35,224 bases of DNA from positions 1 to 35,224 of the forward strand of contig JALAGF010004597.1 in the NCBI GenBank assembly GCA_030167865.1. The letters are read 5' to 3'. A program made the translations under genes and the position numbers. The notes beneath the pieces are model-generated. The model did not search any database, was not told the origin of the DNA, and worked only from the letters and a program-made list of their open reading frames with translations. This stretch comes from Craspedostauros australis. Its lineage: Eukaryota. Every line of letters starts with the position of its first letter. Within the stretch, counting starts at the first letter, position 1. Below, piece by piece: positions 13,327 to 34,400 of this stretch.

Positions 13327-14553
13327 TCACAGACGATTGCGATCCCGCAGCACCAGCTTTGTCCTCGCTACCGGGGCTGCCTTCTTCTTGGACTTCGCCA
13401 CATTCACCGGCGTTCGATTCTCTTCATCGACTGCATTGCGCTGCAAATAGGCCTCGATGCGATGATACTCGCTGTCGGGCACGAAGTCGGGCAACGCCAA
13501 GCATCGCAACGACAGATTCTTAGACACTGCCACGACGAGGCCGTCGACACCGTATGGGCTGAATGCCTGCTGGCCGCTCAAATTGATCGCTTTCAGGGTC
13601 TTGCTGCAGGCGATGATCTGCGACATGACGGGCAGATCGTCCTGCGCGATGTCGCAATGCGACAGATCCAAGACTTGCAACCGAGCAAAGCGGGGATCCA
13701 TCGTGAGGCGGTGCAACTCTTCCAGCTGCGTCGATCGCAAGGGATTGCCGGACAGCGACAACGAGCGCAATGCGACGGCGTTTTCGCACGTGGGCCGCAG
13801 ATGTGACAGGCTCAGCTGCGTCGACGACCTGCTCAGTTCCAACTCTTCAAACGATCTCGACTGCAGGATGCCATGCAACGCACGTTGCGTTTGCGGTCCA
13901 ACGTCGTTGCCTCGCAGATTCAATCGACGCAGACTGCTTCCCAACGCCGCGACGATGCAGGCCAGACCATCGTCGCTCAGATTCGTTTCGAGCAACTCGA
14001 ACTCGCACAATTTATGATGCAACGTCTCTGCCAGCGCCTGACACGCCTGCAGATCCAGCACGGCATCGCCACATTTCTGCTCGACCAACGTGCGATGACT
14101 CGACACGACGAGCGTGTCCAAGCTGCCTGACGCGCGTCCCAACGCTCGCACAGTCGCCGCCGACATGCGCACGACGCCGCGGATTTCCAATCGCTGCAGT
14201 TTGCGTTGGCACAGACCGTCGGCCAGCGCCTCGGCTTCGCTGCTGCGGAGCGTTGCATTCTGCCATAGGATGGTGTGGCATCGTGACGTCGACGCGATCA
14301 AGGTGAGAATCTGAGGCAGGTCGGCGCCACCGCAGTTTTGGAATTTGATGCACTGCCACGGATGATCCTTGGGTTTGTGGCGGATGATCTTGAGGAGCAG
14401 CGCGATGATCTCTCTGGTCTGATCGCTCGAGTTGTCGAATTGGAAGTACGAGAGGTAGAGTTCGGAGAAGGTGGAGAGATTGCTGCGTGCCGATGCCTGT
14501 TTGAGCTTGGCGGCCGTCAGGTGGGATCTGCCATGGAGGAGCAGGCGGACCAT
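13327..14553 (-). CDS. Leucine-rich repeat protein, RNI-like
   Basis: LRR units (LRRLNLRGNDVG, LRSLSLSGNPL, LQVLDLSHCDI, LKAINLSG, SLRCLAL) and a C-terminal YLQRN. First ATG at 14553; the track ORF begins at a non-ATG codon at 14586. Confidence 0.8.
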   Translation of the reverse strand: MVRLLLHGRSHLTAAKLKQASARSNLSTFSELYLSYFQFDNSSDQTREIIALLLKIIRHKPKDHPWQCIKFQNCGGADLPQILTLIASTSRCHTILWQNATLRSSEAEALADGLCQRKLQRLEIRGVVRMSAATVRALGRASGSLDTLVVSSHRTLVEQKCGDAVLDLQACQALAETLHHKLCEFELLETNLSDDGLACIVAALGSSLRRLNLRGNDVGPQTQRALHGILQSRSFEELELSRSSTQLSLSHLRPTCENAVALRSLSLSGNPLRSTQLEELHRLTMDPRFARLQVLDLSHCDIAQDDLPVMSQIIACSKTLKAINLSGQQAFSPYGVDGLVVAVSKNLSLRCLALPDFVPDSEYHRIEAYLQRNAVDEENRTPVNVAKSKKKAAPVARTKLVLRDRNRL

Positions 14554-15562
14554 GATGATTGATGCTGTTGCAGTTTGTTGTTGCAACTTTGGATGCTCTT
14601 GAAGCTGCTGTTTGTTGTGCTGATGTCACAATCGTATTGTCTTCCTTTCAATTTTGTGAACCATGAGAAGAAGAAGCTTGAGTGATCAGGATCGCTTGAG
14701 AGTGATCGTGGCAAAGAAGGACTCGTACGTGCAGTAGAATAGATTAGAGTATTCCACACGAGTATGCCTCGGTTCGACCTCTCCTCATCCTTTTCACTTA
14801 AATGGATATGGCACTGCTACACTCGTGCTGCTGCATCCAGATTTGGCATGTTCGCCCATTTGCAACCACCCCGTTGATCCCTCAACCAGCGATGATGGAA
14901 CCGACGGAGTCACTTCGGCGAAGCCAGGGTTGCATTTGGTGGGTCTCCCAGGTCTGGAAATCGATCGTTCGGCGACGGCAAAGCATCCGTTTGGTGATGC
15001 CCAAGGGGATTCCCATGATCGAGGATTTACTATGCGTTGGTCTGGGCGCTTGCATACTAAGTGGAGTAGACCTGCTGCGTGGGTCTGCATCATGTGGCTT
15101 ACCTTGAGATGTCGTTCACTCATGTGTTTGCATTGTGTTGTGATGTGTTGCATGTGTGTGCTCGTATCTTCCGGCTTTTGTTCGCGACCGTTTTCTCCGT
15201 TTGAAAGACAATTATAACGTATGAATAACGTCAAATGAGTGCGAGATGAATGATTGAATCATGTCCGGGATTGGGATGTTGACCACTTTGACTACGTTGG
15301 CCTCCTCCACAAGAAATGAGGAATCGAAATCGTTTGTTCCTTGTTCTCACCACTTTCGTCGCCCCATCTCTCACACAAAACGTCACGTCGCACCGCATCA
15401 CGCCACCAACACAGAAGAGCGCATGCGATGAAGTGATCATTGTCCCCTCGATCCCTCATTCTCCCATCTCTCATCTATCCGTGAACATCCGTCGCCCTTG
15501 TCGCCCTTCGTCACTAATTGAACCATTGTGAAGTATTCTATTACATCATATTATATTCCAAG

Positions 15563-18316
15563 ATGGTTTGGAATGGCACGAAGCAGTTCCAATCTGGCAG
15601 CAATGGGAGGCAGCGAGGTGGTCCGAGAGCACGATCGAACGCTGCCTCCAATAGCACCAACAATGGCAACACTACCAACAATAGCAACAATAACAATGGC
15701 AATCGAAATGCATGGAGCAGAAGTCAAGTTCCAGACGCGACGACCAGATCAACTGGAACGCAACAACGTGCGAAGAGCAAGCGCGAAGCTGCTGCGCCAA
15801 CTCGAATCCTAGCCAGACCGCAGCCATCCGCACAAAGCCAATCCGGAGGATGGACGGTTGTGGCCACCGCGAAGAAGGCCCCAGTAGCCGACGATCAGCA
15901 CCGGCGACCTCCGAAACCGCAAAAGAGACCGCTGCAACCGACCGCCAATCAGGAAACCAAAAAGACGAAGAACAGTGGCAAAAACAGGAAACAGAATGAT
16001 GCAAGCCAAAGGAATGCAACCAAATCCAACAAGCCAAAGCCGCAGCTCAAAGCGATGTCTCTCGGCGATGTCATCACTGGGAAGAAAGGGAAAGGCGGTG
16101 GCCCAACTTCCTCCAAAAAGCAAGGCAAACTTTCGGCCGCTGCACCGTCGCTCCTGTCGAATCAGGACTTTCCCTCGCTGGGAGCCGCTGCGGCATCGAC
16201 CTTCCAACCACCAACGCAATGGTCGCAGGCAATCCAAGCATCCAAGAATACTAAGATGACGGCAAAAGCCACAGCCCCAAAGCCCAAGCCACCACCTGCC
16301 AAATCAAAAACCAAGCCACAGCAATCATCCAAACAACGCAAACCCCAAATCTCCGTGTCGGCCGCGGCCTTCTTCGCACCCAAACCCATCGATCACAACC
16401 ACCGTGACACGCACGGCGAAGAACATCAGCTATTGCGATTGCTGCAAGAACGCACGGTCTTCCAAAAGAAAGGCAAGCAACGCATCACGACGCGCAAAAA
16501 GAAATTCTCACCGCTCAAAAAGAAGATCTTGGCCGAACGCATGCGCCAATGGCAAGCCACACAAACACCGGCGGAACCACAAACACCAACGAATACATCG
16601 CGCACCGTCTGCATCTACCATTACACGCACAGCGACGAATTGGAGGATGGCGACGAGTACGACGAGATCGTTTCCAATCTAAAAACCATGGCCGATGATG
16701 TCGCGACAAACGAAATACATATTGCACGCGATCTGGGTCCGCGCGATCCCTATCCCGTCTTTGTGCGATTCACAACGCTGCAAGACGCGCATGCTGCCGT
16801 CGTGTGTTGGGATGCGTTGCGTCTCATGGGCACCGATCTCGTGGCCTTTCCGATTGCAGATGATGACGACGGCGAGAATTGGCGCGATATCGTCGTAACA
16901 AACGAAGCCGATTTGCACAACAAGGTGGCGACATCGACGTCGCAACTGGAAGTCGTCCTGCAGAATGTCCTGACTCAGGATGATTTTGACGACGAGGATT
17001 GCATGGAGGAGACCATGTCCGATATCCGAGCCTTGATGGAACCGCACTGTCAGATCGTTCATCTCGTACCGCATGGCGATCGCGATGTCAAGCTGACGAT
17101 GCTCGCCAAACTGTCGGATGTGCAAGCGACCCTGCAGAAACTGAATGGTGTCCTCTTTGGTGGGCAACCTATTGAGGCTCGTCTCGCCGAAGATGAATCC
17201 GCGTCGCCGAGTTCCAACATCGTCATTCTTCACAACGTGTTGACGGAGGATGATCTGGAGGACGAGGATTGCATGGAGGAGAGCATACAAGACATCGAAG
17301 GCTTCGCGAAGGAGTTTGGCGATGTGAAGCAGTTGACACCGAGCGGCAGGGACGTCGAGGTTGAATACGACGTCGCGGACGCGCAATCAATCGCGGCTAC
17401 AATTCACCAAGCACAGCGCACACTTGGTGGATCGGTCGTGACCGCTTCCTTGAAATCGGCAACGCACGCCACCGACCTTCGGACCGTCCAAGTCCACAAT
17501 CTGCTCACCGAGGAAGACTTGGAAGATCCGGATTGTCTCGAGGAGTCGTTGCAAGACATTGAGGAGCTTGCTGCGTCGTATGGGGAAGTGGAATCCATCA
17601 CCGCAACGAAGGTAGAGGATCATGACGTCGTTCAAATTATGTTCCTCAATGCTGATGCCGCAAAGGCAGCGCAGACGGGTTTGGATCAAACGGTTCTGGG
17701 CGGTGAAGTGATACAGGCCAAAATACCAGGCCTGGATGCGACGATGCCGATGGCCGTCGAGGCGAACGGGAGCAACATCAACAGCAGCACGGCCGCCGCG
17801 CAACCCGAAAAACCAGAGGAGCCGAAAGCCATGTACTCCGGCGACAAGCTGATCTCGGAGCGATTCGCCGAAATGAAGAGGGTCCCCAAGATCCCGAATG
17901 CTGGTACGCCTCGCAAATACGCGACACTGTACGAGGACGAAACTGTGAAGCCCTTGCTGAAGGACATGCTGGGCGAGCTGATGAGGTTACAAAAACGTGC
18001 CGTCGAAGAGAAGAACACCAAGGTACGACGAAGATTGGTCATGGGACTGCGTGAGGTCGCGCGTGGCATCCGTGCGCACAAAGTGAAGATGGTCGTCATG
18101 GCAAACAATCTTGATGACTACGGGGCGATCGATGCCAAGCTGCAAGAGATCATCGACTTGGGCAAGAGCGAAGGCGTGCCGATCTTTTACGAATTCTCAA
18201 AGCGGACGTTGGGCAAGGCGATTGGGAAAACCATCAAGATGGCCGTCATCGGCATCCAAAACGCGGAAGGCGCGCATCAGGAATTTAAGAAGCTCATGTC
18301 TGTGTCACGTTCCTAA
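15563..18316 (+). CDS. SECISBP2: SECIS-binding protein 2 homolog (K-rich SID motif, four UHM/RRM-like repeats, L7Ae domain)
   Basis: QDFPSL motif; KKKFSPLKKKILAER (SBP2 K-rich motif); C-terminal L7Ae-type MLGELMRLQKRA..RRRLVMGLREVARGIRAHKVKMVVMANNLD..LGKAIGKTIKMAVIGIQNAEGAHQEFKKL. First ATG at 15563. Confidence 0.85.
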   Translation: MVWNGTKQFQSGSNGRQRGGPRARSNAASNSTNNGNTTNNSNNNNGNRNAWSRSQVPDATTRSTGTQQRAKSKREAAAPTRILARPQPSAQSQSGGWTVVATAKKAPVADDQHRRPPKPQKRPLQPTANQETKKTKNSGKNRKQNDASQRNATKSNKPKPQLKAMSLGDVITGKKGKGGGPTSSKKQGKLSAAAPSLLSNQDFPSLGAAAASTFQPPTQWSQAIQASKNTKMTAKATAPKPKPPPAKSKTKPQQSSKQRKPQISVSAAAFFAPKPIDHNHRDTHGEEHQLLRLLQERTVFQKKGKQRITTRKKKFSPLKKKILAERMRQWQATQTPAEPQTPTNTSRTVCIYHYTHSDELEDGDEYDEIVSNLKTMADDVATNEIHIARDLGPRDPYPVFVRFTTLQDAHAAVVCWDALRLMGTDLVAFPIADDDDGENWRDIVVTNEADLHNKVATSTSQLEVVLQNVLTQDDFDDEDCMEETMSDIRALMEPHCQIVHLVPHGDRDVKLTMLAKLSDVQATLQKLNGVLFGGQPIEARLAEDESASPSSNIVILHNVLTEDDLEDEDCMEESIQDIEGFAKEFGDVKQLTPSGRDVEVEYDVADAQSIAATIHQAQRTLGGSVVTASLKSATHATDLRTVQVHNLLTEEDLEDPDCLEESLQDIEELAASYGEVESITATKVEDHDVVQIMFLNADAAKAAQTGLDQTVLGGEVIQAKIPGLDATMPMAVEANGSNINSSTAAAQPEKPEEPKAMYSGDKLISERFAEMKRVPKIPNAGTPRKYATLYEDETVKPLLKDMLGELMRLQKRAVEEKNTKVRRRLVMGLREVARGIRAHKVKMVVMANNLDDYGAIDAKLQEIIDLGKSEGVPIFYEFSKRTLGKAIGKTIKMAVIGIQNAEGAHQEFKKLMSVSRS

Positions 18317-18573: not shown

Positions 18574-21500
18574 CTATCTTCGAGATGAACCAAACGGAGA
18601 GTTGCCATACGATTGACCACCGCCGCCGCCTCCGCCACCGCCATCGTGCGAAAACTTGCAATTGTTGCCATAACGGCAGTTGCCCTGTGCATAGAACTTG
18701 CACGGCGGTTTCTTGTTCCTGGTGTTGCCTCGTTTTTTGTTCTGTCCTGATCCTGAGTTGCCACCCATGCCCCCGCCGAAGGGCGACTGCGATGAGGGAG
18801 CTCCGATGCCTCCCCCGAAGGGTGATGGGTTCGACATGCCACCACCTCCGCCACCGAATGGTGATTGGTTTGACATGCCGCCGCCACCACCACCACCACC
18901 ACCAAATGGTGATGGATTTGACATTCCGCCGCCACCAAACGGAGATGGGGCAGGTGCGTTCATGCCGCCGCCGAATGGAGAGGGAGCCGGTGCATTTCCC
19001 ATGCCGCCACCAAACGGAGATGGAGCTGGTGCATTGCCACCACCACCGAAGGGCGACGCGTTCGACATTCCACCGCCGCCGCCACCGAATGGAGAGGGAG
19101 CCGGTGCATTGCCCATGCCCCCACCTCCAAATGGATTTGACGTGTTTGTGTTCCCCATGCCGACACCACCGCCAAAAGGTGATGGTGCTGGTGCATTGCC
19201 CATGCCACCGCCGCCTCCAAATGGAGAAGGGGACGGCGCATTTCCCATACCGCCACCTCCGAAAGGTGATGGAGCAGGAGCATTGCCGCCGCCTCCGAAT
19301 GGATCTGGTGCATTGGTGCTGGCTCCGCCACCTCCAAATGGAGAAGGAGCCGATGCGTTTCCCATACCACCGCCTCCGAATGGATTGGGTGCGTTCATAC
19401 TGGCTCCACCACCACCACCTCCACCAAATGGATTGGGTGCATTCGTGCTGCCGCCGCCACCTCCGCCAAAAGGATTCGGAGCACCACCACCGCCGCCGCC
19501 GCCAAAGGACGTGCCGACCTTGCTTGTGGTAGAGGAACTGCCAAACGTCGTGACGGACGTGCCGTGGTACAATTCTGCCAGAGCCTTGGGCGGCAACGTC
19601 GATTTATACTTGGCGACGCCACCCTCGACGGCCTTTTGCAATCGCGTTGCACTTGGTTTGCCCAGCACCGTTTCGTCCAGTCGCTTGACGATGTCGGTGG
19701 AGATGATATGGAAGCACTTTTCAAATTCGTCCGCGTACTTGTTGGCGAGCATGTGGCCGGCGCCGGTGAGGAAGGATGCCAAGACCGGCGCGGTCAGCAA
19801 CGGCAAGGGCTTGGTTTCGGGTGGCAGCAAGTCGAGGAATCGTTGCAACCAATCCAGCGCAGCCTTGTGACCACCGAGCAGCACATGTCCCGATGGCAAG
19901 GACGCCATGATGTTGGAGACCATGGACATGATGTTTTCGGTCCGCGTCAAGAACTTGGGGAAGGTCTCGTATTCTCCATTCTTCTCCTTGATCATACCCA
20001 ACGTCGCCATGAGCTCTTCCTCCGATGCGCCGGCCTTGGGCGTTGGCAGCGTCGGCACGGCGGTCGGACAGACGGTGTAGATGTGCGCGGCGAGGATCGG
20101 GACGAGCTCCTTATTCTCGACGGACACCATGGCCAGCAACCCGGCCAACGGGAATCCGTCCCCCTTCGTTCCGCTGAATCCGTCGGCCTGGATGCGCGTC
20201 ATGGCCTTGCTGGCCAGCAGATCCAGGAGGTACCGCTTGCCGCGCACCATCTCGGGCGCCACGCCGGGTTGGTTGGCCTTGAGGGCCTGCTTGGCCTGAT
20301 CGTCTTCCTGGCGCGCCAATGTGATGGCCTCGCACACTTCCGCGGCGACTTGACGCACCTTGTTGGCATCCGTCAATGTGTTGACCTTGCCGCCCACGAC
20401 CTTCTTCATCTTGAGACGTCGCTTCGAGACCGCCTTTGACTTTTCGAACGGCGCCACGGACGCGCGCAGATCGACCAACTGGCCGACGAGCTTCTTGGCC
20501 TTGCCGACGAAGTCCACGACGGTGGGGGGAGGCTCCGCGACGCGCGGTGGCGATGCTGCTGCTGCCGCGGCTCGCTCCTTGTCCGCCTTTTGTTCCTTTT
20601 CGCGTTGCGCCTGCTGTTGCTCCTCCACCTGCTTCTGCTGTTCTTCCCGCTTGGCCTTCGCCACGGCTTCTTCCTGCTGCCGTTGCGCTTCTGCTGCGGC
20701 ATCGTCGGCCTCCTTCTGCTTGCGCTGCACAGCCTCGGCTTCCGCCCGCAGCTCCTTCTCCTTGCGCTGAATCTCGGCCGCCTTCTGCATCTCCTTGGCC
20801 AGGATGCGTCTGACATGACGATGGGCACGATCGTTCTCGACCTTGAAATGCTGACGATACGCATCCGTCTTTTGCTGGACCTTGGCCATGGTATGCTCCT
20901 CGGTCGGCAAGGACTCCATGAGCTGCTGATCGAGCTTGTGATGATGCTGCAGGATGGGGTTCTGGCTGTGCGTGGCGCAGGCCGTTGCGAAGAGCTTGGA
21001 CAGCATGGCCATCTCGACATCCTGCTCTGCCTGGACGAGACGATCGCGCGATGTCCTCGATTGGTGATCGTCGTAGGCCAGAAGCGCCGACGTCGGTGCC
21101 GTCATGGCATCCACGTGGTTCGACAAGGCCGGGAAGGACTGGCGCTGATCCGGGCTGAAGATGGCCAGATCCATGTCATGATCCTCCTCGTCATCGTCGC
21201 TGTCGTACAGCGATATCCTGCTGCGCGGCGTTCTGAACTGCTGCGAATGCGTGCGGCTTTCCAACGGCGATTGCAATCCAAACCAGCACTGACCCCATTG
21301 TGGTTGAAAACCCATGGGATGTGGTGGTTCGGCCTGATTGTCATCATCGCTGTCGCTGTCATCGTCGCTGTTGTTGGTATCGACACGCATGATGACGTGC
21401 TTGTCATTGCCGTACCGAGGCAAAGTCAGATTGTCATTGCGGCGATCCTCATCGTCCGAATACTGCAGATCGTCATGCTCATCGTTCAGACGGATCGGAA

Positions 21501-21591
21501 TCATCTTCTGACGACTTTGAAACTGCGATGCTTGCACCACAACGAAGGACTCGTCATCGGAATCGGACCCTTCAAGGCCGAACTGCGGCAT
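18574..21591 (-). CDS. GLE1: mRNA export factor Gle1 with C-terminal FG-repeat region and CCCH zinc finger
   Basis: Acidic N-terminus, central coiled coil (EAQRQQEEAVAKAKREEQQKQ), Gle1 domain motifs (HIYTVCPTAVP, LGM..GEYE..FLTR, WLQRFL, FLTGAGHML..Y..F), then PFGGG repeats and CKFYAQGNCRYGNNCKFSH. Confidence 0.85.
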   Translation of the reverse strand: MPQFGLEGSDSDDESFVVVQASQFQSRQKMIPIRLNDEHDDLQYSDDEDRRNDNLTLPRYGNDKHVIMRVDTNNSDDDSDSDDDNQAEPPHPMGFQPQWGQCWFGLQSPLESRTHSQQFRTPRSRISLYDSDDDEEDHDMDLAIFSPDQRQSFPALSNHVDAMTAPTSALLAYDDHQSRTSRDRLVQAEQDVEMAMLSKLFATACATHSQNPILQHHHKLDQQLMESLPTEEHTMAKVQQKTDAYRQHFKVENDRAHRHVRRILAKEMQKAAEIQRKEKELRAEAEAVQRKQKEADDAAAEAQRQQEEAVAKAKREEQQKQVEEQQQAQREKEQKADKERAAAAAASPPRVAEPPPTVVDFVGKAKKLVGQLVDLRASVAPFEKSKAVSKRRLKMKKVVGGKVNTLTDANKVRQVAAEVCEAITLARQEDDQAKQALKANQPGVAPEMVRGKRYLLDLLASKAMTRIQADGFSGTKGDGFPLAGLLAMVSVENKELVPILAAHIYTVCPTAVPTLPTPKAGASEEELMATLGMIKEKNGEYETFPKFLTRTENIMSMVSNIMASLPSGHVLLGGHKAALDWLQRFLDLLPPETKPLPLLTAPVLASFLTGAGHMLANKYADEFEKCFHIISTDIVKRLDETVLGKPSATRLQKAVEGGVAKYKSTLPPKALAELYHGTSVTTFGSSSTTSKVGTSFGGGGGGGAPNPFGGGGGGSTNAPNPFGGGGGGGASMNAPNPFGGGGMGNASAPSPFGGGGASTNAPDPFGGGGNAPAPSPFGGGGMGNAPSPSPFGGGGGMGNAPAPSPFGGGVGMGNTNTSNPFGGGGMGNAPAPSPFGGGGGGMSNASPFGGGGNAPAPSPFGGGMGNAPAPSPFGGGMNAPAPSPFGGGGMSNPSPFGGGGGGGGGMSNQSPFGGGGGGMSNPSPFGGGIGAPSSQSPFGGGMGGNSGSGQNKKRGNTRNKKPPCKFYAQGNCRYGNNCKFSHDGGGGGGGGGQSYGNSPFGSSRR
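18770..19510 (-). repeat. Coding tandem repeats, about 18 x [S/N]PFGGG(G) units (often MGNAPAPSPFGGG)
   Basis: Repeated CCACCGCC / AATGGAGA units on the + strand, translating to FG-nucleoporin-like repeats. Confidence 0.95.
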
Positions 21592-21983: not shown

Positions 21984-24900
21984 TCACAATGCTTCATAAA
22001 ACAGCATGTAGGCCTGGCAGCGACGCACGTCTTCCCACGACGATGGCAGGACGGTGGCATCGGAGATGCGGAACCAGTTGTCGCGATCGTCTCTGCGGTA
22101 GGCCACGTAGTGACCACCGAAGGCGTTGCCGCGATGTTCAATGACGCTCTGCAGTCTGTAGATCAGTCCGCTCGCGCCCTTCTTGGCAGAAGCGGCAGCG
22201 ACGTTGCATCCGCCCACCCACGACGTATCTGGCCTCGAGGCGTTGCCGCTGTAGGCGCAGTAGGGACCGATGTCCAGCATCTGCGGGAACTGGACGTACT
22301 CCATGCATTTTTCCATTCGGGACGTGTACGGATCGAAGTACCGGCGTTGGATGTGACAGCACAGGATCGATGGTCGTCGTGTGAACAGGAGGCACTTCTT
22401 GGCCACGTGGCGTTCCAAGCGTCCTTTCTTTCGATGAGTGGTGCCGTTGCATGCCGACGTTGGAATTGTATCAGCATCAGCTTCATCACCCAGCAGCAGC
22501 ATGTCGTCCAATGCTGCTGCGTCATCATCACCATCACCGTTGCCGTCATGTCCGTCGATCACGTCGTCTCCATCCGGATCGATTTGCCGAACCGCGTACA
22601 GCTTCTGCTCCATGCGCTGCAAATCATTCTGCAGATACCGGATGGCGTCTGGATCTTTCGTCTTCTTGGTCAAGGTCGCCATCGCACCACGCAACAGCAG
22701 CACTTCTTCCTGCAGATGATTCGTCTGCTTCTGGATCGTGCACGATCGGCATTCCACATCGGTGACGTGTTCGACTGTGGTGAATTCCTGCAGGCACTGT
22801 TGCAGCGTGCAGCCAGTGGCCTTGTCCGTGCTGCCGGTCGCCAGGTAGGTCGACACGGAAAGGGGGACGAGCGGGATGTCCAGGAATGGTGCGTTCTGGA
22901 TGGGACGGACGTGGCCACATTGGCAGCATTGGAGGGTGGAGCCGAGCCAACCGCTCATGGGCGATGGCGTGATGCTGGAGATGGCGTTCTGCATGATGCG
23001 CAGAGGCGTGGACAGTACTTGCTGCTGCTCTTGTCGTGGCAGTGTTTGATCATGCGTTGGCGGTACTGTTTCGTGGGGCCTCGTTGCCGTCTCTGCGGAT
23101 GAGGCAGCAAGTCGCGACTTGGCACTGTTCAATTGGATTTGATCTTCATGGAATACTACCGACTGACTCACGGGGATGGATTCCAAGTCCTCTTCCGCGT
23201 GAGTGACGGGGAACGCGATGTCGCCGTCCTCCTGCTTCTTCTCATCTGGGTGGCTGTGAACGATTGAAGGCGATTGCGCCTGTTGTGAAGTTGATAGAGC
23301 TTGTGGTGACGATTGTCCATTTTCCATTTTCTTGGACACGCCGGGATGTATTCTCGAATGCGTCTGTTCGCTGACTGTTGTCGCTGTAATCTCGTCCATA
23401 ATATCAGACAAGGAAAGCACGTCATGCGTTTGTGTCGTGGTTGCTGCATTCACATGATCAAAATCAAATGCCGTGGCAAATGACGAATCGGCCGTATCCA
23501 GTTCCGCATCGTGAATGACGCAACCCAGCAGGGCATGCAACAGTTCCTGCGCATCCTGCTGCTCCATCGTCGCGCCTTCGAATTGGTGGTTGGATTCTCC
23601 AATGCGCTGCAAGAGGGTGCGCGGTGTGATTTTGGATTGGCTGCTGCCGAAAGGTCGGAAGAGATTTGGCGTTGTGAATAGTGACAACGTCGATGACGAT
23701 GCCGTCGTGGCTGGTTTTGTTTCGTGTCCGTTGATTTGTTGTAGCAAGTGCAACAGCTGGTGGCTGAAGCTGTCCGGTGATTGAAACGTTGATGCTTTTG
23801 TTGCGTCGACGCTGCTGTCATTCCATGCTTCATCGTCGGAATACGAATATTCACTGTAGTCGTCATCGTCATCCTCACTGTCCAAATCGTTGTCGCTTTG
23901 TTCCTTTCCACTAGCATTAGCATCATGCGACGACAGTTGTCTCTGCCGCTGTCTTTGATGCTGCTGTTGCACGGCCGTCTGCTGATTGAGCTGCGCCACC
24001 TTGTCGAGGTAGAGAAGGAAGGGCCCCAGCGATGCCAATGCCTGGAGGACAGAATTCAAGAAGCACGTCTGTCCTTGATTGGGCAGGCCGACGATCTGAA
24101 GCACGTCAAGTTGTACGCAAGGCGTTGGAGTATCTGTCATTGTTTGTTGGTTGGCAGGGGCGCCCGTTTGTGATGCAAAGAAGGAGAATGGAGTTCGTAT
24201 TCTGGTTGCGTGCTTCAGTTGACTGCCTGGAGCAGTCGCCATCGTGGAGAATAGGGTGAAGACGTGTTGCAAGAAGGCCTGGCACAGCTGCGGTCGGAGG
24301 ATGCCCGTCTTGAGACAATCGCAGAGGAATGTGAAGATGGCCATCTGGAGGTTGGAAGATAGCTGCAATGTCTTCTGTGATTGGGACACCAGAGTGGTGG
24401 TGAGATTGGCGCCAACAGTCGCATCGAGCAGATGCGATCTTCGAAAGTCCGGAGTTGATGATGCAGCTGCTGACGAGCGCGATGACGACGATGAGGATGG
24501 TAACCTTGTGTCGGATTCGTCTTCGTCATCGTCGTGGAAATCCTCACTGGACGTTGCTGTGTGATCCATGCCCAAGAATGCAAACGGCGTGAACGAGGCA
24601 TTTGGCAACCCCAGCTTTTGCTGTAGTTGTTGCTGCCACTGTTGGGAACGTGTCTCATCACGATTCTGAATGGCCGAAACCAAGGGCCGTGTGACCACGA
24701 TCGGAGTTGTGGTGGGGCTCGAGAAACGTGGCCTTGGCTGATGATGCTGCTTGTGCTGCTGCTTGTGCTTTTGTTGGATCTGTTTGTCAGTACGATTCGT
24801 GGACAAGGAGGCGGCCGTGATGGGTGACGCCGCAGAATCTCCATTGAGACGAGACATGGATTTTCCATTGCGCCCCACAGAGTCATGGTGTTCCTTCTGG

Positions 24901-25133
24901 ACAGGAGGTGGCAACGAAAGAGCCGGCACCACATCCATGTACTTCATACTGCCTCGGTTGGACATGGTGGGCGTCCCCGCCTCTTGCGCAGGCACCAGCA
25001 ACGACGATGCAGAAGCAGCCGTGGCAGACGACTTCTTTCGCAGGCTGGTTGTGGTGCCTGTGGTTGCCGACGCCGTGGAGCTGGTGCTGCTGCTGCCGGC
25101 GGCCGTCACGCCGGCGTACTTCATCACATTCAT
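21984..25133 (-). CDS. Ubiquitin-specific protease (peptidase C19), USP30/UBP27-like
   Basis: Cys box GLPNQGQTCFLNSVLQALAS, QQDAQELL, CCQC and CRSC zinc ligands, His box YRLQSVIEHRGNAFGGHYVAYRR..WFRISD, and terminal QAYMLFYE. Long low-complexity insertions. Confidence 0.92.
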   Translation of the reverse strand: MNVMKYAGVTAAGSSSTSSTASATTGTTTSLRKKSSATAASASSLLVPAQEAGTPTMSNRGSMKYMDVVPALSLPPPVQKEHHDSVGRNGKSMSRLNGDSAASPITAASLSTNRTDKQIQQKHKQQHKQHHQPRPRFSSPTTTPIVVTRPLVSAIQNRDETRSQQWQQQLQQKLGLPNASFTPFAFLGMDHTATSSEDFHDDDEDESDTRLPSSSSSSRSSAAASSTPDFRRSHLLDATVGANLTTTLVSQSQKTLQLSSNLQMAIFTFLCDCLKTGILRPQLCQAFLQHVFTLFSTMATAPGSQLKHATRIRTPFSFFASQTGAPANQQTMTDTPTPCVQLDVLQIVGLPNQGQTCFLNSVLQALASLGPFLLYLDKVAQLNQQTAVQQQHQRQRQRQLSSHDANASGKEQSDNDLDSEDDDDDYSEYSYSDDEAWNDSSVDATKASTFQSPDSFSHQLLHLLQQINGHETKPATTASSSTLSLFTTPNLFRPFGSSQSKITPRTLLQRIGESNHQFEGATMEQQDAQELLHALLGCVIHDAELDTADSSFATAFDFDHVNAATTTQTHDVLSLSDIMDEITATTVSEQTHSRIHPGVSKKMENGQSSPQALSTSQQAQSPSIVHSHPDEKKQEDGDIAFPVTHAEEDLESIPVSQSVVFHEDQIQLNSAKSRLAASSAETATRPHETVPPTHDQTLPRQEQQQVLSTPLRIMQNAISSITPSPMSGWLGSTLQCCQCGHVRPIQNAPFLDIPLVPLSVSTYLATGSTDKATGCTLQQCLQEFTTVEHVTDVECRSCTIQKQTNHLQEEVLLLRGAMATLTKKTKDPDAIRYLQNDLQRMEQKLYAVRQIDPDGDDVIDGHDGNGDGDDDAAALDDMLLLGDEADADTIPTSACNGTTHRKKGRLERHVAKKCLLFTRRPSILCCHIQRRYFDPYTSRMEKCMEYVQFPQMLDIGPYCAYSGNASRPDTSWVGGCNVAAASAKKGASGLIYRLQSVIEHRGNAFGGHYVAYRRDDRDNWFRISDATVLPSSWEDVRRCQAYMLFYEAL

Positions 25134-26055
25134 GTTCGTTTTCTTCTCTTTCCTCTCTTTCTTTGTTCTGCTCTGTTGAGCTCCACTCTGTTGTGCTTGA
25201 AGCTCGCGAATGAAGCTCGTGAATGACGATGGTGGAACGATGATCGTGGAATGATGGCAGAGAGTTCAGTCGCTCGGTCTGTTCTTCTCTGCTTCCTCAG
25301 CGATCTGATGCAGACAGTGGACAAGGAGGCAAAGTCTCAAGCAACGCTGGATGCTTCTCTCTCGCAATGGGTGCTCTCCTCAGGATGCTACGCAGTGCGC
25401 GTGCCTACGGTATCACTGCTGCTGCTGCCGTTTCTCTTGATGTGTCCCACGCACTCTTGTGCACAACGCTTCAAGCGACGAACCAAAGAGTTTAGCAGGA
25501 AATGCGAGTACGGTGGACTCAAATAGAATATTATAGAATATAATGGAAGATGTGATCCTCCACGAATGTAACGAGGATGAATGACGCAGATGAGATGATC
25601 TCTCTTTCTTTCTCACTGCCTCGCTGTGGTCCTCTCGTGCGGCTACGGTTTCAGTATCGAATGACGGGGATGTGGTTTCGGAATGGTGTGCTATGCGCAG
25701 TTCCGCGCGTGGACTGAAGGGGGGCAGCTGGTTGGGTCCTTCTGCACCTGTTCCACGCAAAGCACTTTTCCCGTTCCAGATTCTGCGCTCGTGTTGGCCG
25801 AAAGTTCCTCACATCACGATTCCCGTTAGCGGATGGAGGACGGACGCAATCAACAACAAGAAACTTCCGCAACCGCATCGTAGTCGCGGATGAGAGACCA
25901 ACTACCTATTATATTTTGACTTGCGGCACCGCATCCTCATCCCCGCATCACGAGTATTATTTCAACTCTCATAGTCGTACTTGTATTGTGTTGCATAATA
26001 TATTATCTTCCTATATTACCGAGCGTTCGCAGGCATTCCAACAGCATCAACAGCA

Positions 26056-27627
26056 TCAACCTGAGCAGCATGTGCAGGCATCCTTGGCCTGCAAGAAATC
26101 CTTGCGTCCGCGCTTGACGCACTTCTGGAGCAGGCTCTTCAATTCGTCGTTGTTCTGATCCAGCTGCAGACCTTCCCACGCCGCCAACGCTGCATCTTCG
26201 TACCGCTCCAGTTCCAACCGTGCCACGGCCATGCGGTAGCAGGCCTTGCTCCACGTCGGCCGCAGGGTGCGCGCGATGACGGCGTCGCGCAAAGCATCGT
26301 CGGGGCGTTTCATCATCATGTAGCATGCGGAACGGTTGGAGTAGAATGTCGCGTCTTTCGGATTCGCACCGATGGCGTCGCTGTAGATCGATTCGGCTTG
26401 CGTCCATTCCTTCTTCGCGAAGTGCTTGTTGCCTTCCGCCTTGATATCCAGCGCCTTCTTTTGCAATTCCTCCGAAACGTCGTCCGACGATGCGATCTCC
26501 GCGGCCTGCGCCTGCGCCTCGTTCTCCTCCTTGTTGTTGACGCATTTGCTCTTGCCCTTGTCATCGGCGGTCTGCGCCTGCGCATCGTCGTCCTGGCTCC
26601 TCGGTGGCGCCGTCGTCGGCACGTGCTCGTTGTTCTTCTTGTGTTCCTCGATGTACGCGCGTGCATCTGCCTCCGTCAATTGCGTGCCATCCTCCTTGGC
26701 GGGCAGCAGCAACAGCACGCAACCGACATGCGATTCCTGCGCCGCCAAATCCAACGGCGTCAGTCCGCTGTGATTCTTCTGCAGCAGCACGCCTCGCTTA
26801 TCATCTTCCAGCTTGTCCAGCAGCGCCGCCAACGTGCCCACCAAGTTGAGATCGGCCGCCATGTGGAACAACGTCAGGCCGCCTGGCAACGTCGTGTCGA
26901 TATCGACGTCCGTCTTGGCGAGGATCAGCTTGGCGTGCTTGTCGTTGGATGCCGCGACGGCCAGCACCAGCGGCGATGGAATGTTGCTGGATGGCTGGGC
27001 TTCGACCTTCGCACCGCAGTCCAACAAGGCCTCGATGGTCGCGGAGCAATCCTTCTGCCCGCCGACTGCCCAATGCAACGGCGTCCCGCCTTGCTGCGAA
27101 AACGTGTGAATCGCCACGTGCCCCGCTTCGTACAATGCCCGGATCGTCGCGGCCGTGGCACCAGCACCGGCGGCATAATGCAAGGCCGTCGCACCGGCTT
27201 GCGATCGCGCCAAACCCAACTTCATGTCCTTGCCGATGCCCAGCAGGAACAGCACGCGGCGTTCGGCCAGCGCTGCATCGGCATGCCGCGCCGCGAACAT
27301 GAGGGGCGTCAGACCTTCGCGATCCTTCTGTTTCAGGATGGTCTGGTAGGCCGCCGCGGTGGGGAACCAGTCCGGCCGCAGGATCTGCTCCACGATCTCG
27401 TCGTCGTGGCTCTGGCAGGCGAAATGCAAGGCGGTGCGCTTCTGTCCATCGCGGAACTGCGTCAGCACTTCCAGCGGCGCGATGCCGTGATCGTGGGAGT
27501 ACTGCGTCACGCACGAGGCCACGGTGTCGCCCTTGCCCGTCAAGGCGGCCTCCAGCAGCTTCGTCAGGAAGGCGCGCTCGGCGCTCATCTTCGTGTTCTT
27601 TTCTTCGGCGGTCAAGGAAGGCGACAT
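26056..27627 (-). CDS. Ankyrin-repeat plus TPR protein
   Basis: Ankyrin repeats (RTALHFAC, GLTPLMFAA, GATALHYAA, GGTPLHWAV, GLTPLDLAA) followed by an STI1-type three-TPR module (KAEGNKHF..YSDAI..FYSNRSACY..WSKACYRMAVA). Confidence 0.9.
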   Translation of the reverse strand: MSPSLTAEEKNTKMSAERAFLTKLLEAALTGKGDTVASCVTQYSHDHGIAPLEVLTQFRDGQKRTALHFACQSHDDEIVEQILRPDWFPTAAAYQTILKQKDREGLTPLMFAARHADAALAERRVLFLLGIGKDMKLGLARSQAGATALHYAAGAGATAATIRALYEAGHVAIHTFSQQGGTPLHWAVGGQKDCSATIEALLDCGAKVEAQPSSNIPSPLVLAVAASNDKHAKLILAKTDVDIDTTLPGGLTLFHMAADLNLVGTLAALLDKLEDDKRGVLLQKNHSGLTPLDLAAQESHVGCVLLLLPAKEDGTQLTEADARAYIEEHKKNNEHVPTTAPPRSQDDDAQAQTADDKGKSKCVNNKEENEAQAQAAEIASSDDVSEELQKKALDIKAEGNKHFAKKEWTQAESIYSDAIGANPKDATFYSNRSACYMMMKRPDDALRDAVIARTLRPTWSKACYRMAVARLELERYEDAALAAWEGLQLDQNNDELKSLLQKCVKRGRKDFLQAKDACTCCSG

Positions 27628-28081
27628 GGTGGCGGCTTTGGCAGGAGGACAGAGGGAATTGGTTGGTTGGTTAGTTGGTTCGTTCGTTGATAGAGTGTGA
27701 GTTGTGAGATGTGTTGTGAGATGTGTGGCAGCTCGGACGATGAAGAACGACAGGAACAGAGTTTGTGTGAATGGCCTCTTTTAGAATTCTGATTGTGTCT
27801 GCAAATTGGTGGGTGGTGTTGGTGTGAGTAGACCATGATTGTGGTATCAAGGAACATTCAGTGCGTAATCTTGCCTGTGGTATTGACTGAAACACCGCAA
27901 ACCCAGAAACAAGCAAACAAAGATCCAAAACAAGGATGAATGAACGCACAACACACAACACACCGCGCATCGCAACGAACACTCCAATTGTTCCTTCACT
28001 TACATTGGACTATACGAGCTATTACACCATCATCCTCTCTTTCCAGAGAGAAATGCAAGGACATTGACGAAAGCGACCATC

Positions 28082-28612: not shown

Positions 28613-31418
28613 GGCGCGCTTTCAGAAGATCATGTGTATTGGTAACATATGCTGTATGACATCCTACTGCTTAATGCAGGCGTGCACCCATTCTTTCGAG
28701 CATAACACAGTGTGCAAGGATGCTTTCCTACATTGACAACTCCATTCTACTGTTTGACTATTCTGACTAGTTTGTCGAATCCGTGTTTGGAGCTGGTGGT
28801 AAACTCATATTTATTGCCAATAAGTTACACCAACAAGCCACCAAGGTCATTTCATTCACACAAGTGTTCGCCGAAGGAATCAAAAGTGCTCTGTTGTGGT
28901 GAACAAGGAAGAGAAACCGCCAAAAGAACCGTCGCTCTGAATTGCGAACTGCAATACAGAATTGTCATCCATGATCAACCGAAGCTGAAAAAGCTTGGGC
29001 AGGGAGGCGATCACTCGTGACGAGATGTCTTGATACAATCATTGCTGTTTGTGTGACGCTGTGGAGCGAACATGGTCGATCTATTGCCTTCTGGTCTCCT
29101 CGTGTGGAGCTCTGTCTCACATAGTTCTCCAGTGCTCTGCTTTGCGTGTCGTGGCCGACACATACCTGTACCTGCGAATACTCTTACGACCTGCTCGCCC
29201 GTTTGTTGAATCGCTTGCCAAACGGAGAAGCAACGCGGCACCCCAATACAAACGCTTCGCAGTGGAAGCCATCCCGAACGACAACAGTGCCGGCAACGGC
29301 GGAATTGCCGCTGGCTATTCCAAGACTACTGCACGTCCGCTATTTGTACCGCGCGCTACATAGTCTGCATATCCGTGCTGCCAACAGCGACAACACAACC
29401 TGTACGTGGAAGATTTGACCGTAGCCGAGGGCTCAGATGCCAAACGTCAAATCAACTTCAACGACCACACGGACTTCGGGGCGTGGAGGACAACCTGTCC
29501 ACAACCTCGTTCTATTTGCGAACACGCTTCTCATGAAAGTGCAATACTCACTTCCCTTGACTAATTCCTCCCTCGCCCACCCCTCTGCTAATTGTTGTCG
29601 ATGAGTGCGGGAAAGAGCGAAACACAACATGTCTGTGATACTCCTCTTCCGTTCATTCACATTAGTGGGAGGCAGTGTTGACGCATCGCGCCCTTTTCAA
29701 CCTGCATTGGCAGATGTTCGAAGTGACGTGGTGCGACTGGCAACATTGCTTGTCCCGCTGCATCTGCTTGACCTTTCTCGATCGTTTGTGCTGGCTGCGT
29801 GTAGCATGGTAAACTACTGCCATTGCATTTTACATGCCTCGTTCTGGCGAACGTGCCTCGGCGAGATCAAGATGCCACCTACTGGTATGTACCGACAATG
29901 TCATGCATGTGTATCTTACCATACGGGTACGCGTGCCACGCGCTTCTCACTTTGATCTTGTGATTGTTTTTGCGGCCGTCCATTGTGATGTTTGCGTTGG
30001 TCATGGTCGCGGCTGCGTGGTCGGTGACAAGAAGACCTGGGATCTCTGCGCCCCATTGAAGCATCAACGATACGTGACTCATACCTGTGTTCTGCAACTC
30101 TTGACATTGTCAATGCAGAGGCGTTTCAATCGGCTCTCAGATCGAAGAACCAGTTCCTCCGCTGAAGAAGTTCCACCGAAGATACGTGATCGACCCTTAA
30201 CGAAACCCAAAGGCAGCACCTCTTGGATCAGTCGCCACGCATACGTACATCAATAGGTGTCTGTTCGTGGATTGCTGGACATGCGAAGGCAAGAGATGGA
30301 AACCACACAAGTATCGACACGAGATTGACTGCATCCCAACACCGAAGAAACTCCCGGCAACGAAATGATACCGTCACAAGAGGTTCCCCGCGGGCTCGAC
30401 GTTGAGTGCAGTCGACAGGTGACTTCATGCATTGGTTTGGATGCAATGAACTACGTCACGAGCACTGTTTCTGGTAGAGGATGACGTCGCGCTCGCAAAG
30501 CTTAATTCGAATTCATTGGGTGAGACGACCGAGACTATCCGTGCTGGACCAAATGAACGCTGTTTCAAAAGCTCCTCTGCGCATTCATCCTGGCCGTTGG
30601 CTTCGCCGAGGGACAAGCGGTGCACTCCTTCGGAGGTCATCATTACCTTGGTCCCGCCTTTGCCGGTGGAACACTGGTTGTGTCGTGAAGAAAGAATTTG
30701 AGCTTCGCAGGCAGTTGCAGCTCGTGAGGATCACACCTCTTCGCTACCGACTAGCCGATCCGAACGCCCAAACATATCTTCGTTTGGAGCAGCCTTTTTC
30801 TCTCCTGCGCATCTTCACAGTACTGATGTACAGAAGTTGTGTTTCCCCTTTGGCCCAAAACCTCGAAATGATGTCTCACACAGCTTGGCTGCTTGCCATG
30901 AGTGCCTTGTGTGTTTCATGACAGGTAGATGCGTGGGGGCAGTCGTTCTTCTTTCGTTCTTCATCGAACCCTGGCACTGGGCGTGCCTACGAACTGCTCT
31001 TGAGCTATCGTCACCTTGGAGCTCTTGGTCAAGCAATCCTGCTGGCCCAACAACCGCTTCCATCTCCCACCCAACACACACGGTCATAAAACAAACGAGA
31101 AGAGCAAACGAAGATTAGTCTCACAAGAACTCAAGGGGCCGAAGATCGAAACCCATCCAACTTAACCAACCCAAGCCAATCTTAGGTCTAATCAAGGTAC
31201 GAGCAAGATGCTGCCATTTTCGGATCTGCAACATCATGCGTGCCATACCTTTGCTTTTTCATCATGAATCGTCAACATGGCATCTTCGTCAACTATCGCT
31301 GCTGCACTTTCTACATCAGCACTCACCATGATGCTGTGTTTCAATTCCTCCCCATGTACCATAGACCCCGCGTCTGCTTGACAGCCCCGCTTTCCAACAC
31401 AGAAGCAGCTACAACAGC

Positions 31419-34400
31419 ATGTCGCCTTCAACAAAGGATGCGCGCAATGGCAGCAACACGAGCGTTGGCAAGAATGTCAATGATCTGCTCGGCAAACCTT
31501 CAACTTTGAACAGTGACCATGACGAAGGATCGATGGTGTTCTGCGATGAGCATTCCACAACGCATGGATCAAATCAGTCTCACTCCAACCGTTCCACAGC
31601 ACACGATGAGGAGGACGACAAGGACTCGCCCGCCGCACTTGTTCGTACCGAAGACAAGGCCGTGTCTATCCTCAGGATCATGGCCATCCTTTTCCTTCTC
31701 GCTGCCGCTGCGGCCGCAAGCACGACGCTGTACCTAGTTACGAGCGATGCAGAGGAGGATGCCTTCGAACGCAGCTTCGACAAGATCTCGGAACGGATCG
31801 TCGACTCCTTGCTCGAGGAGACTCGAGCCAAGTTTTGGCACGCACGTACCTTGGCTGGAAGTATTGACAGCATCATGCTGGCTGGCAACATGGACAAGCT
31901 CAACCTCTCCATGCCGCTTTGGGAGATCATGACAGAAGAAGCACGCTCTACCAGCAGTGCCAAGGTTGTGTCCTGGTCACCATTCTTGTTCGACGAGAAC
32001 GAGCTGGACCAGTTCTGGAACTTCACTATTGACCAGACAGACGGAGGTGTTCCCACATCAGGGGCAAATCCCGTCTGTAGCCTGTGTAGCAACCCGGACT
32101 GGGTCCTCGCAAACCCAGACTTCGTCATGACCCATCCCTTCTTTGGGGACTTCACTTGCCAGTCGTTCTATGACTTGGGCCAAGCTGGTGCCTTGGGACA
32201 TTGTGAACAGACCCTGCAATTCGCGTCAGCCTGCTTCTGTGCTCCGCCAGTGCTCAAGGAGGACGAGACCATCTACACAACACGCAACACTTCTCAGGGC
32301 ATATGGAGGGTCGGCTCCGATGGTTTTGCCGTTGATGACAACAGTCCGGCACCATGGAATCCAATATGGACATCCATGGCTGGTGATACCAGCACAACGA
32401 CCTTCATGTACAATCAGATGAGTGATCCCGTCCGCCAGCGCGTCCTCACAAGTCTCGTTGAAGACCGCTCCCCTGCCTTCTCCGAAGTTTTCCGCCGTGA
32501 AGGTGCCTACTACGAAAACTACGGCAAGGGCAACATTGGCGAATTGGCCACACTCATTGTCTTCCCCGTGTTCGGACCGGAATCTGACGATGTCGTCATT
32601 GGATCAGTCGTCCTGGAGATCGACTGGAGAGACTTCGTCCCCTCCAACTTCCCTCTTGATGGGGATCTGGTCGATATCGTGGTCTCCAACTCATGCGGGC
32701 AGAACTACACATTCCGCGTTAACGCCAACACCAACGAACTCGATTTGATTGGCGAGGGCGACCTCCACGATACCAAGTTCAGCGAGCACGTGTACGGTTC
32801 CGCATTTGAAGAGTACAACAGCATCGTAACCAGCGCGTCCAAAGCCGGAGACGCGGTTGATCAATTGATCGATTTCTGCCGGTACCGTTTCCTCATCTAT
32901 CCCAGACAGGAGCTCCGCGACGAGCATGTGACCAACGAGCCAATCATCTTGACCATCCTGGTATGCACCATCTTCGTCTTCACCACGCTCGTCTTCTTCC
33001 TCTACGACTTCTTCGTCAGACGTCGCCAACGTCTGGTGATGGACCGCGCCACGAGAACGGGCGAGATCGTGTCTTCCCTCTTCCCAGAGAACGTCCGAGA
33101 ACGGCTCTACAATTCACCGGCGAAGAACCAACTTATCCGTATCGACGATGAAGACCATCTGGACACAGATAGCACGGTGAAGTCAAGCAGCAACTTCCGA
33201 TCGCCAAAGGCAAGCATCAAGAGCTTCCTATCTGCCAACGAGAACGGGTTGCTCGGATCTGAGCCCATCGCCGACCTCTTCCCTGACACGACAGTGGTCT
33301 TCATCGATATCTCCGGTTTCACCGCATGGTCAAGCGAGCGTGACCCAAGCCAGGTGTTTCGCCTCCTGGAATCGATCTATCAAACCTTCGATATCATCGC
33401 CAAGCGCCGCAGCATCTTCAAGGTCGAGACTATCGGGGACAGCTACGTCGCGGCCACTGGTCTTCCGGAACCACGCAAGGATCATGCCGTCGTTATGGTC
33501 CGCTTTGCATACGAGTGCCTCAACGAGATGAGGTCCTTGGTGAAGCGACTGGAGGTGCTGCTGGGTCCATCCACTGGCGACCTCAAGGCGCGATGTGGTA
33601 TGCACAGCGGTCCTGTGACAGCGGGTGTCCTCCGCGGTGCCAAGGCGAGATTCCAGCTCTTCGGCGACACCATGAACGTGGCTGCTCGGTTGGAGAGCGC
33701 AGGAACGGAGGGACGGATCCACATCTCCAAGGAGACCGCGGACATACTCAAGGCAGCAGGCAAGTCCAACTGGGTGACGACTCGGCAGGAGCTAGTCTCC
33801 ATCAAGGGCAAGGGCGAGATGCAGACGTTCTGGGCCAGTCCGAGGAACCGCAAACGATTCCCCAAAGGCGCTCGCAATAGTGGCACGCAATCAGACACGG
33901 GCAGCGATATCGAAAGCGTCGCCCTTTCCAACATGTCGGCCGACTCGGATGCGATGTTGGATGCAACTTCCAACCAGAAGGTCCAGCGTCTCATCGATTG
34001 GAACGTCCAAGTCATGGTCAGCCTCTTGGAGCAAGTCGTGAAGAAACGCCACCTTGTTGCTACGCAGGCAGATCCCATCGAAATGATCAGCGCTGCCGAG
34101 CAAGCCATCACTCGCAACCCCGACATCGTGTTCGATGAGATCACCGAGGTCATCCCCGTTCCGCATTTCCAATCAAGCAGTGTCAGTGCAAGCGAGACCC
34201 CTGGCGAAATCGATCCGGCTATCCAGAATGAGCTCACTTCATTCGTTTGCCGTCTCTCCGGTCTCTACCACGACGTTCCATTCCACAACTTCGAGCATGT
34301 GAGCCACGTGACCATGTCGGCTGGCAAGCTGATGAAACGCATCGTCGCCCCAGACAGTGTCGACTACAATCAGGACGCCATCGACATCGCCCACAAGGTG

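Follow-up and report, generated by a model that had tools for sequence, protein, structure and literature searches.

In this study, a stretch of 35,224 nucleotides from Craspedostauros australis (contig JALAGF010004597.1, hereafter the window) was analysed with respect to one gene, that of the mRNA-export factor Gle1. We observed that this gene is the only one for Gle1 in this raphid pennate diatom and has a form common to diatoms, in which the folded Gle1 domain is followed in the same chain by a long tail of phenylalanine-glycine (FG) repeats and a zinc finger of the CCCH type (three cysteines, one histidine). Both parts of the tail are of the kind found in the nucleoporin Nup42 (hCG1, NUPL2, Amo1), which is a separate protein in other eukaryotes, and the tail was probably acquired through the capture of these two parts of Nup42 by Gle1, with the loss of Nup42 itself.

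A Gle1 protein with an FG and zinc-finger tail

The gene occupies the minus strand as a single open frame from the ATG at 21591 to the TAG at 18574, coding for 1005 amino acids, and its start, MPQFGL, fits the consensus MPRFxL of the diatom alignment. An earlier note on this DNA had rightly described an uninterrupted frame; the interval given there, 18574-20450, holds a real feature but spans just the last two thirds of the gene, leaving out the N-terminal third. The Gle1 identity proposed at that time was borne out by a Pfam scan of the window protein (P0001), in which GLE1 matched residues 378-629 (E 3.4e-21, 76.1 bits versus a cut-off of 24) and zf-CCCH_4 matched residues 961-982 (E 1.2e-10). 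A Pfam family search of the genome gave a single GLE1 match, indicating a single-copy Gle1, and the layout typical of Gle1, with an N-terminal region and a coiled coil ahead of the domain, can be read from the sequence and the consensus.

Downstream of the Gle1 domain we counted 21 FG, 19 of them PFG, with exactly 18 PFGGG (19473-18769) where about 18 had been reported, and the one C-x7-C-x5-C-x3-H that had been reported too. This arrangement is confirmed and is not due to chance: all 18 PFGGG found over the window's six frames lie in the tail, and shuffling the tail 2000 times gave a mean of 1.1 PFG and a maximum of 6, against 18 seen. The 18 repeats are spelled in 17 different ways in DNA, with synonymous codons mixed, and are therefore conserved at the protein level.

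In an AlphaFold model of the domain with 55 tail residues, the predicted local distance difference test (pLDDT) score stays above 90 as far as residue 320 and soon drops below 50. In a second model, which includes the whole tail, the ordered parts are the Gle1 domain (about 90-98) and the finger (75-89), the remaining tail being disordered and mostly below 50. The model aligned with human Gle1 384-697 at a VIA-align Z of 29.3 (root-mean-square deviation 2.6-3.0 over 286-288 residues) and with yeast Gle1 245-538 at Z 28.3, against Z 15.0 for the next-best family, and the top Foldseek matches were all Gle1. The structure alignment agrees with the earlier statement that the tail starts past the end point of human and yeast Gle1; the human domain ends at residue 698 according to PMC5998080. 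Neither of the two models has an ordered segment past the Gle1 domain that would stand for the Gle1-binding motif of Nup42.

Comparison of Gle1 C-termini, as proposed earlier, revealed that the tail is conserved diatom-wide. In a homologue survey, 120 of 129 matches were listed, and counts of 121 add the window protein. Among the matches listed, at least five FG and a finger follow the Gle1 domain in 108 of 120, and all named homologues are diatoms, pennate as well as centric; one finger is present in 51 of the 121 and two in 58. A complete finger is lacking in 12 of the 121, in 10 of them through truncation or a faulty gene model; P0018 and P0079, for instance, break off within the finger, and the P0040 model follows another frame through the tail. 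The other two, P0047 and the P0069 model of T. pseudonana, finish with the Gle1 domain. From 109 new representatives we chose the 49 whose match extends to the domain end, and FG and finger were found in 36. Similarly, 41 of 45 metagenome loci reach the domain end, comprising 30 with FG and finger, 5 that run off the contig end, 2 with broken frames and 4 of a different paralogue. The tail is also carried by the MMETSP-named proteins P0023, P0050 and P0086, which we take to be transcript assemblies, and some relatives already bear both domain labels (GLE1, CCCH) through automatic annotation. In a quick tree (rooted at the midpoint and built on 100 of 127 rows after 27 partial ones had been dropped), the window protein falls together with Nitzschia, Cylindrotheca and Pseudo-nitzschia (Shimodaira-Hasegawa approximate likelihood ratio test, SH-aLRT, 95), and the tail-less rows are placed beside tailed sisters; because of its rooting and the dropped rows, this tree gives no order of events.

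Other properties of diatom Gle1 were also observed. The Gle1 domain region of the window (19549-20541) is intron-free, whereas many relatives (L021, L031, L042 and L054 were compared) carry one or two introns at conserved places, which explains the numerous fragmentary Gle1 gene models among them. A second kind of diatom Gle1 (L036, L037, L038, L040; P0127, P0216) has a domain that is intact (Pfam E 2.5e-20 to 4.6e-16), an N-terminus that is short and lacks the long coiled coil, no finger and a common basic end, with tyrosine-glycine (YG) repeats in place of FG; L037 mixes FG and YG. As P0127 and the tailed P0123 are sisters, this kind is probably a derived paralogue. We take yeast K377 and K378 to be residues of the inositol hexakisphosphate (IP6) pocket. 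At their sites, as at those of K333 and R374, which PMC5998080 assigns to that pocket, most of 80 diatoms have S, H, T or V (window 20067-20211, minus strand), and with these positions replaced diatom Gle1 may not need IP6.

Kinship of the tail and the search for a separate Nup42

A search with a diatom tail returned 112 matches, which we sorted into 61 Gle1 pieces, 38 Nup42/Amo1-type proteins, 3 tail-only, 6 Nup214-like and 4 others. The Gle1 domain is absent from 51 of the 112, and among these no finger family besides Nup42/Amo1 was found; source annotations call some members AMO1 or NUP42-like. The Nup42-type matches come from fungi, insects, red algae, Perkinsus and three oomycetes (P0283, P0295, P0309). 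Oomycetes thus possess Nup42 as a gene of its own, so that a separate Nup42 exists in stramenopiles. No Nup42-type match with a named source is from a diatom; P0269, P0319 and P0329 carry no source name.

The resemblance of the tail to Nup42/hCG1, already noticed from the letters, holds for both finger and PFG repeats. The fingers of oomycete Nup42 P0295 and of Gle1 P0132 are identical at 17 of 19 positions, the Nup42 of the oomycete Plasmopara (P0309) found the Gle1 finger as its best match in the genome (E 2.1e-5), and a Nup42 finger matrix scored that finger 41.4 and the next of 26 finger-like strings 28.0. PFG is the commonest FG form in Nup42 orthologues (373 of 813 FG) and likewise in diatom tails; the FG flavour of the window, which had been called unusual, is therefore ordinary, the long glycine runs alone being the species' own style. 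A profile comparison of tail and Nup42 aligned the FG repeats alone, which are low-complexity, and was set aside.

In Nup42-type proteins the finger is N-terminal, lying inside the first 50 residues in 33 of 37; they also have a middle domain, FG repeats and, at the C-terminus, a motif that we have taken as the Gle1-binding motif described in PMC5998080. The window protein has the Nup42-type finger and FG domain and is without the N-terminal finger, the middle domain and the binding motif. At E<1e-3, none of 285 diatom sequences (whole or partial Gle1 proteins and cluster members) was matched by profiles of the binding motif and of the middle domain (W-x-L-S ... S-x-E-E-x-R), the best scores being 3.4 and 5.2 bits; as a control, profiles built without five non-opisthokont Nup42s recovered four of the five at no less than 18 bits. 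A whole-gene fusion of Gle1 and Nup42 is excluded by the mirrored order and by the lack of both parts. The earlier interpretation of a Gle1-Nup42 fusion is thus partly supported, in that FG repeats and finger of Nup42 type stand and a whole Nup42 does not. As a separate observation, the middle-domain profile weakly matches a Gle2-binding-like segment of a Nup98-like gene (G000:C3522, L137; E 0.02-0.05 among the loci examined), hinting that the Nup42 middle domain might resemble a Gle2-binding sequence (GLEBS).

When the CCCH matches of two Pfam families in the genome (16 and 30) were screened for FG, only Gle1 was FG-rich, with 15 FG per 200 residues versus at most 5, and no finger-bearing Nup42 was found elsewhere among them. 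Pfam identified two of the FG proteins found as Nup54 and Nup62; the others are, by our own reading, Nup58-, Nup98- and Nup214-like, and no small PFG protein is among them. A search for a finger-only protein produced no candidate, and the FG tail searched against its own genome found itself alone. A PFG-pair pattern gave 79 matches versus 29 in the control, and 30 loci and 11 stretches were translated. Searches with the oomycete middle domain and with P0319 gave nothing credible among the best candidates, which alone received scores; at the 18-bit level, single-sequence searches of this kind recover 3-4 of 15 true relatives. The candidates L146 and L147 turned out to be a retroelement and noise, respectively. 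The check for a standalone Nup42 that had been proposed earlier turned up no finger-bearing form in the genome; loss of the separate Nup42 is likely, the searches for a finger-less form being of low power.

With regard to the Gle1 surface, human W602, Q640, K643, I646, L647 and E650 correspond in sequence alignment to yeast W451, Q491, K494, I497, L498 and E501. In 80 diatoms, the six matching columns have a top-residue share of 0.26-0.44 (6th-25th percentile) compared with a domain median of 0.63, and six of seven mapped surface positions are variable; the Trp position carries Leu, Val, Ile or Met, and the I646 position polar residues. Since exposed helix faces vary anyway, such drift fits the loss of a partner and is no proof of it.

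Origin and role of the tail

We infer the origin of the tail, and with it its localisation and functions, as follows. Early in diatom evolution, or before it, Gle1 would have captured the FG repeats and the CCCH finger of Nup42 as a covalent C-terminal tail. The Gle1-binding motif of Nup42 would then have become superfluous and been dropped, the Gle1 surface that had bound it would have drifted, and the separate finger-bearing Nup42 would have been lost. The likely role of the tail would be to dock messenger ribonucleoprotein particles (mRNPs) destined for export covalently beside the activator of Dbp5. As Nup42 binds Gle1 via its C-terminus, the mirrored order would preserve the layout of Gle1, FG and finger outermost. 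Taken together, we regard capture with loss of Nup42 as probable. In yeast, Gle1 is stabilised by the Nup42 motif, which also anchors FG repeats next to Gle1 (PMC5998080), the FG domains of Nup42 and Nup159 have been proposed to bind Mex67-Mtr2 and so to place the mRNP for Dbp5 (PMC7553267), and the Nup42 FG domain fused to the Gle1 C-terminus is reported to rescue the remodelling defect of a double FG deletion (review PMC9132428). Unstructured A6 is bound by human NUPL2 (bioRxiv 201996).

Several points weigh against this capture. The Nup42 set was retrieved with the diatom tail including its FG repeats, which makes the P0309 and matrix tests partly circular, and a finger of 19 residues bears little phylogenetic signal, kinship having been judged by matrix and search. 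The last finger follows most FG in 103 of 109 diatom tails and precedes them in 6, the opposite of Nup42, and the number and place of fingers vary among the tails. The six surface residues are presumed to form the Nup42-binding site, for which no residue list was found in the literature examined, and the neighbouring D651/E502 (D277 in diatoms) is kept in 63 of 80. Searches for a finger-less Nup42 are low-powered, and the assembly is fragmented into 6734 contigs. Non-diatom stramenopile Gle1 was not found, all being diatom-like among the 150 of 943 representative matches listed and among the metagenome Gle1 loci, and prokaryote contigs gave no Gle1. No NTF2 domain of NXF1/Mex67 was found in the genome, in a family search that was silent on controls too. 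An Atlas search returned GLE1 clusters from plants, fungi and apicomplexans only and nothing usable for the tail.

The same function might also have had another origin, with the FG tail derived from the C-terminus of a Nup214-like protein or grown in place, the finger added separately and the likeness to Nup42 partly convergent. We consider this rather unlikely, and the case for it begins at the very end of the chain: a terminal FG-x2/3-RR is shared by 64 of 109 finger-bearing Gle1 and 6 of 7 Nup214-like pieces and occurs in none of 37 Nup42, which again counts against capture, as does the terminal PFG-x-x-RR of the genome's own Nup214-like gene (G000:C3894). Over the genome this pattern has three matches, namely that gene, one chance match and one without a stop. 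Among the FG proteins of this genome that were compared, PFG dominates with 19 of 21 FG in the Gle1 tail and 20 of 42 in the Nup214-like protein and does not do so in the Nup58-, Nup54-, Nup62- and Nup98-like proteins, and the reversed order and missing Nup42 parts would suit such an origin. It is harder to reconcile with the near-identity of the Gle1 finger to that of oomycete Nup42, the Nup214-like finger being of RanBP2 type and not CCCH; moreover, PFG is likewise the main flavour of Nup42, and the genome retains no finger-bearing Nup42. The Nup214-like gene itself (G000:C3894:1-5310, L143) is a large nucleoporin-like open reading frame, open at the contig start, that has the look of a Nup214/Nup358 hybrid; it combines an EF-hand-like acidic region, a RanBP2-type finger, PFG repeats, a coiled coil and two short helical repeats.

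Alternatively, the tail might supplement a Nup42 that is still there, a divergent, finger-less form that binds Gle1 while the tail serves extra roles, for example as an RNA binder of the cytoplasm or of stress granules; budding-yeast Nup42 is likewise not known to carry a CCCH finger. We regard this as unlikely. The Nup42 motif stabilises human and yeast Gle1 by 13-24 degrees, which the tail cannot obviously do, K269 (35 of 80 diatoms) and D277 persist, both the middle domain and the binding motif were sought in the genome with weak power, and some Nup42-type matches have no source name; nevertheless, where the opisthokont surface has its conserved Trp and exposed hydrophobic pair, diatoms have other and varying residues, no small PFG protein appeared among the FG-rich proteins found, and the Nup42-type matches of named source include no diatom. 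Finally, an artefact in which the tail lies outside the Gle1 protein (two merged genes, or a tail spliced out) is extremely improbable and was rejected, since against the 12 proteins without a complete finger, two of which end at the domain, stand the in-frame junction of domain and tail across the whole diatom tree, the tailed transcript-derived proteins, and exceptions that are mostly visibly cut off or mis-modelled and lie beside tailed sisters.

The capture of Nup42 parts can be extended, as a tentative and somewhat doubtful proposal, to diatoms that would be without any Nup42 and whose one-chain Gle1 would be stable alone, probably IP6-independent, and equipped with its own FG dock, a poly(A)-binding finger and, in common with the Nup214-like protein, a hitherto undescribed terminal PFG-x-x-RR that binds a diatom export receptor other than NXF1/Mex67.

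The cytoplasmic mRNA-export platform has been described as near-identical from yeast to human, and an entire lineage of algae here seems to retain just two parts of Nup42, welded to Gle1. This would separate the proposed jobs of Nup42, with FG repeats and finger retained beside Gle1 and the binding and stabilising motif dropped, which supports a model in which the FG position beside Gle1 is what counts and indicates a conserved, little-studied role for the Nup42 finger. Because human Gle1 is unstable without Nup42, a diatom Gle1 domain that may be stable by itself would be useful for biochemistry, and diatoms can be edited, which opens the tail to direct testing. In the literature searched, which covered little of the subscription journals, no description of this architecture was found.

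Gene features and comparison with known systems

Features of the Gle1 gene and other genes of the window, with positions in the window
Feature	Positions	Strand	Basis
Gle1 gene, 1005 amino acids, no intron required	18574..21591	-	open frame, diatom-type start, sole genomic GLE1 match
Acidic N-terminal region, conserved motifs MxRFxL (start) and EPPHPxGF; candidate pore-anchoring segment	21307..21591	-	alignment consensus; anchoring inferred from human Gle1
E/K/Q/A-rich stretch, probable coiled coil (limits approximate)	20569..20886	-	read from sequence by eye; place agrees with human Gle1 coiled coil
Folded Gle1 C-terminal domain (Dbp5/DDX19 activator fold)	19564..20520	-	Pfam GLE1, pLDDT >90, structure alignment
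Disordered FG tail, 20 FG including 18 PFGGG, spacing 11-16 residues	18769..19545	-	sequence and model
Basic linker preceding the finger	18703..18741	-	sequence; K-x-P ahead of the first Cys belongs to the diatom consensus
CCCH zinc finger C-x7-C-x5-C-x3-H, Nup42/Amo1 type	18646..18702	-	Pfam, pattern, finger comparison, model
Terminal PFG-x-x-RR-stop motif, common to the diatom Nup214-like protein	18574..18600	-	motif counts
Leucine-rich repeat (LRR) protein	13327-14625	-	Pfam scan
Ubiquitin C-terminal hydrolase	21984-25265	-	Pfam scan
Ankyrin and tetratricopeptide repeat (TPR) protein	26056-27780	-	Pfam scan
Cyclase fused to a phosphodiesterase domain	31365-35222	+	Pfam scan

Besides the other genes in the table, a convergent neighbour (15518-18316, plus strand) ends 257 bases from the Gle1 stop, with a C-terminal L7Ae domain and weak repeats resembling RNA-recognition motifs (RRM) before it; it resembles selenocysteine insertion sequence (SECIS)-binding protein 2. 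The N-terminal segment of diatom Gle1 is a candidate pore anchor by analogy with human Gle1, whose residues 2-33 bind Nup155 (PMC5998080).

In comparison with known Gle1 structures (human 6B4F/6B4I, yeast 6B4E/3PEU, Debaryomyces 9LT9), the C-terminal fold is the same over its full length (Z 28-29), and these proteins share with the diatom protein a single copy with an acidic N-terminus, then a coiled coil and then the folded domain. The diatom protein differs in carrying about 330 more residues (FG repeats and finger) past their end, in not keeping the surface residues that we presume to form their Nup42 site, and in having replaced the basic IP6-pocket residues of yeast. With Nup42/hCG1/NUPL2/Amo1 it shares a C-x7-C-x5-C-x3-H finger of near-equal sequence and PFG-dominated repeats; those, however, belong to a separate protein with an N-terminal finger, a middle domain and a C-terminal Gle1-binding motif, whereas in diatoms the last two are lacking and the finger is distal, C-terminal and in the same chain as Gle1. 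The Nup214-like protein, named from its architecture, has the same PFG flavour and terminal PFG-x-x-RR and differs by its RanBP2 finger and coiled coil, without CCCH or Gle1 domain. A further likeness is with a Gle1-FG(Nup42) fusion that Adams, Terry and Wente reportedly engineered in yeast in 2014 (described in review PMC9132428), which also has a Nup42-type FG domain at the Gle1 C-terminus; diatom Gle1 is the natural counterpart of this chimera, present diatom-wide and furnished, in addition, with one or two CCCH fingers.
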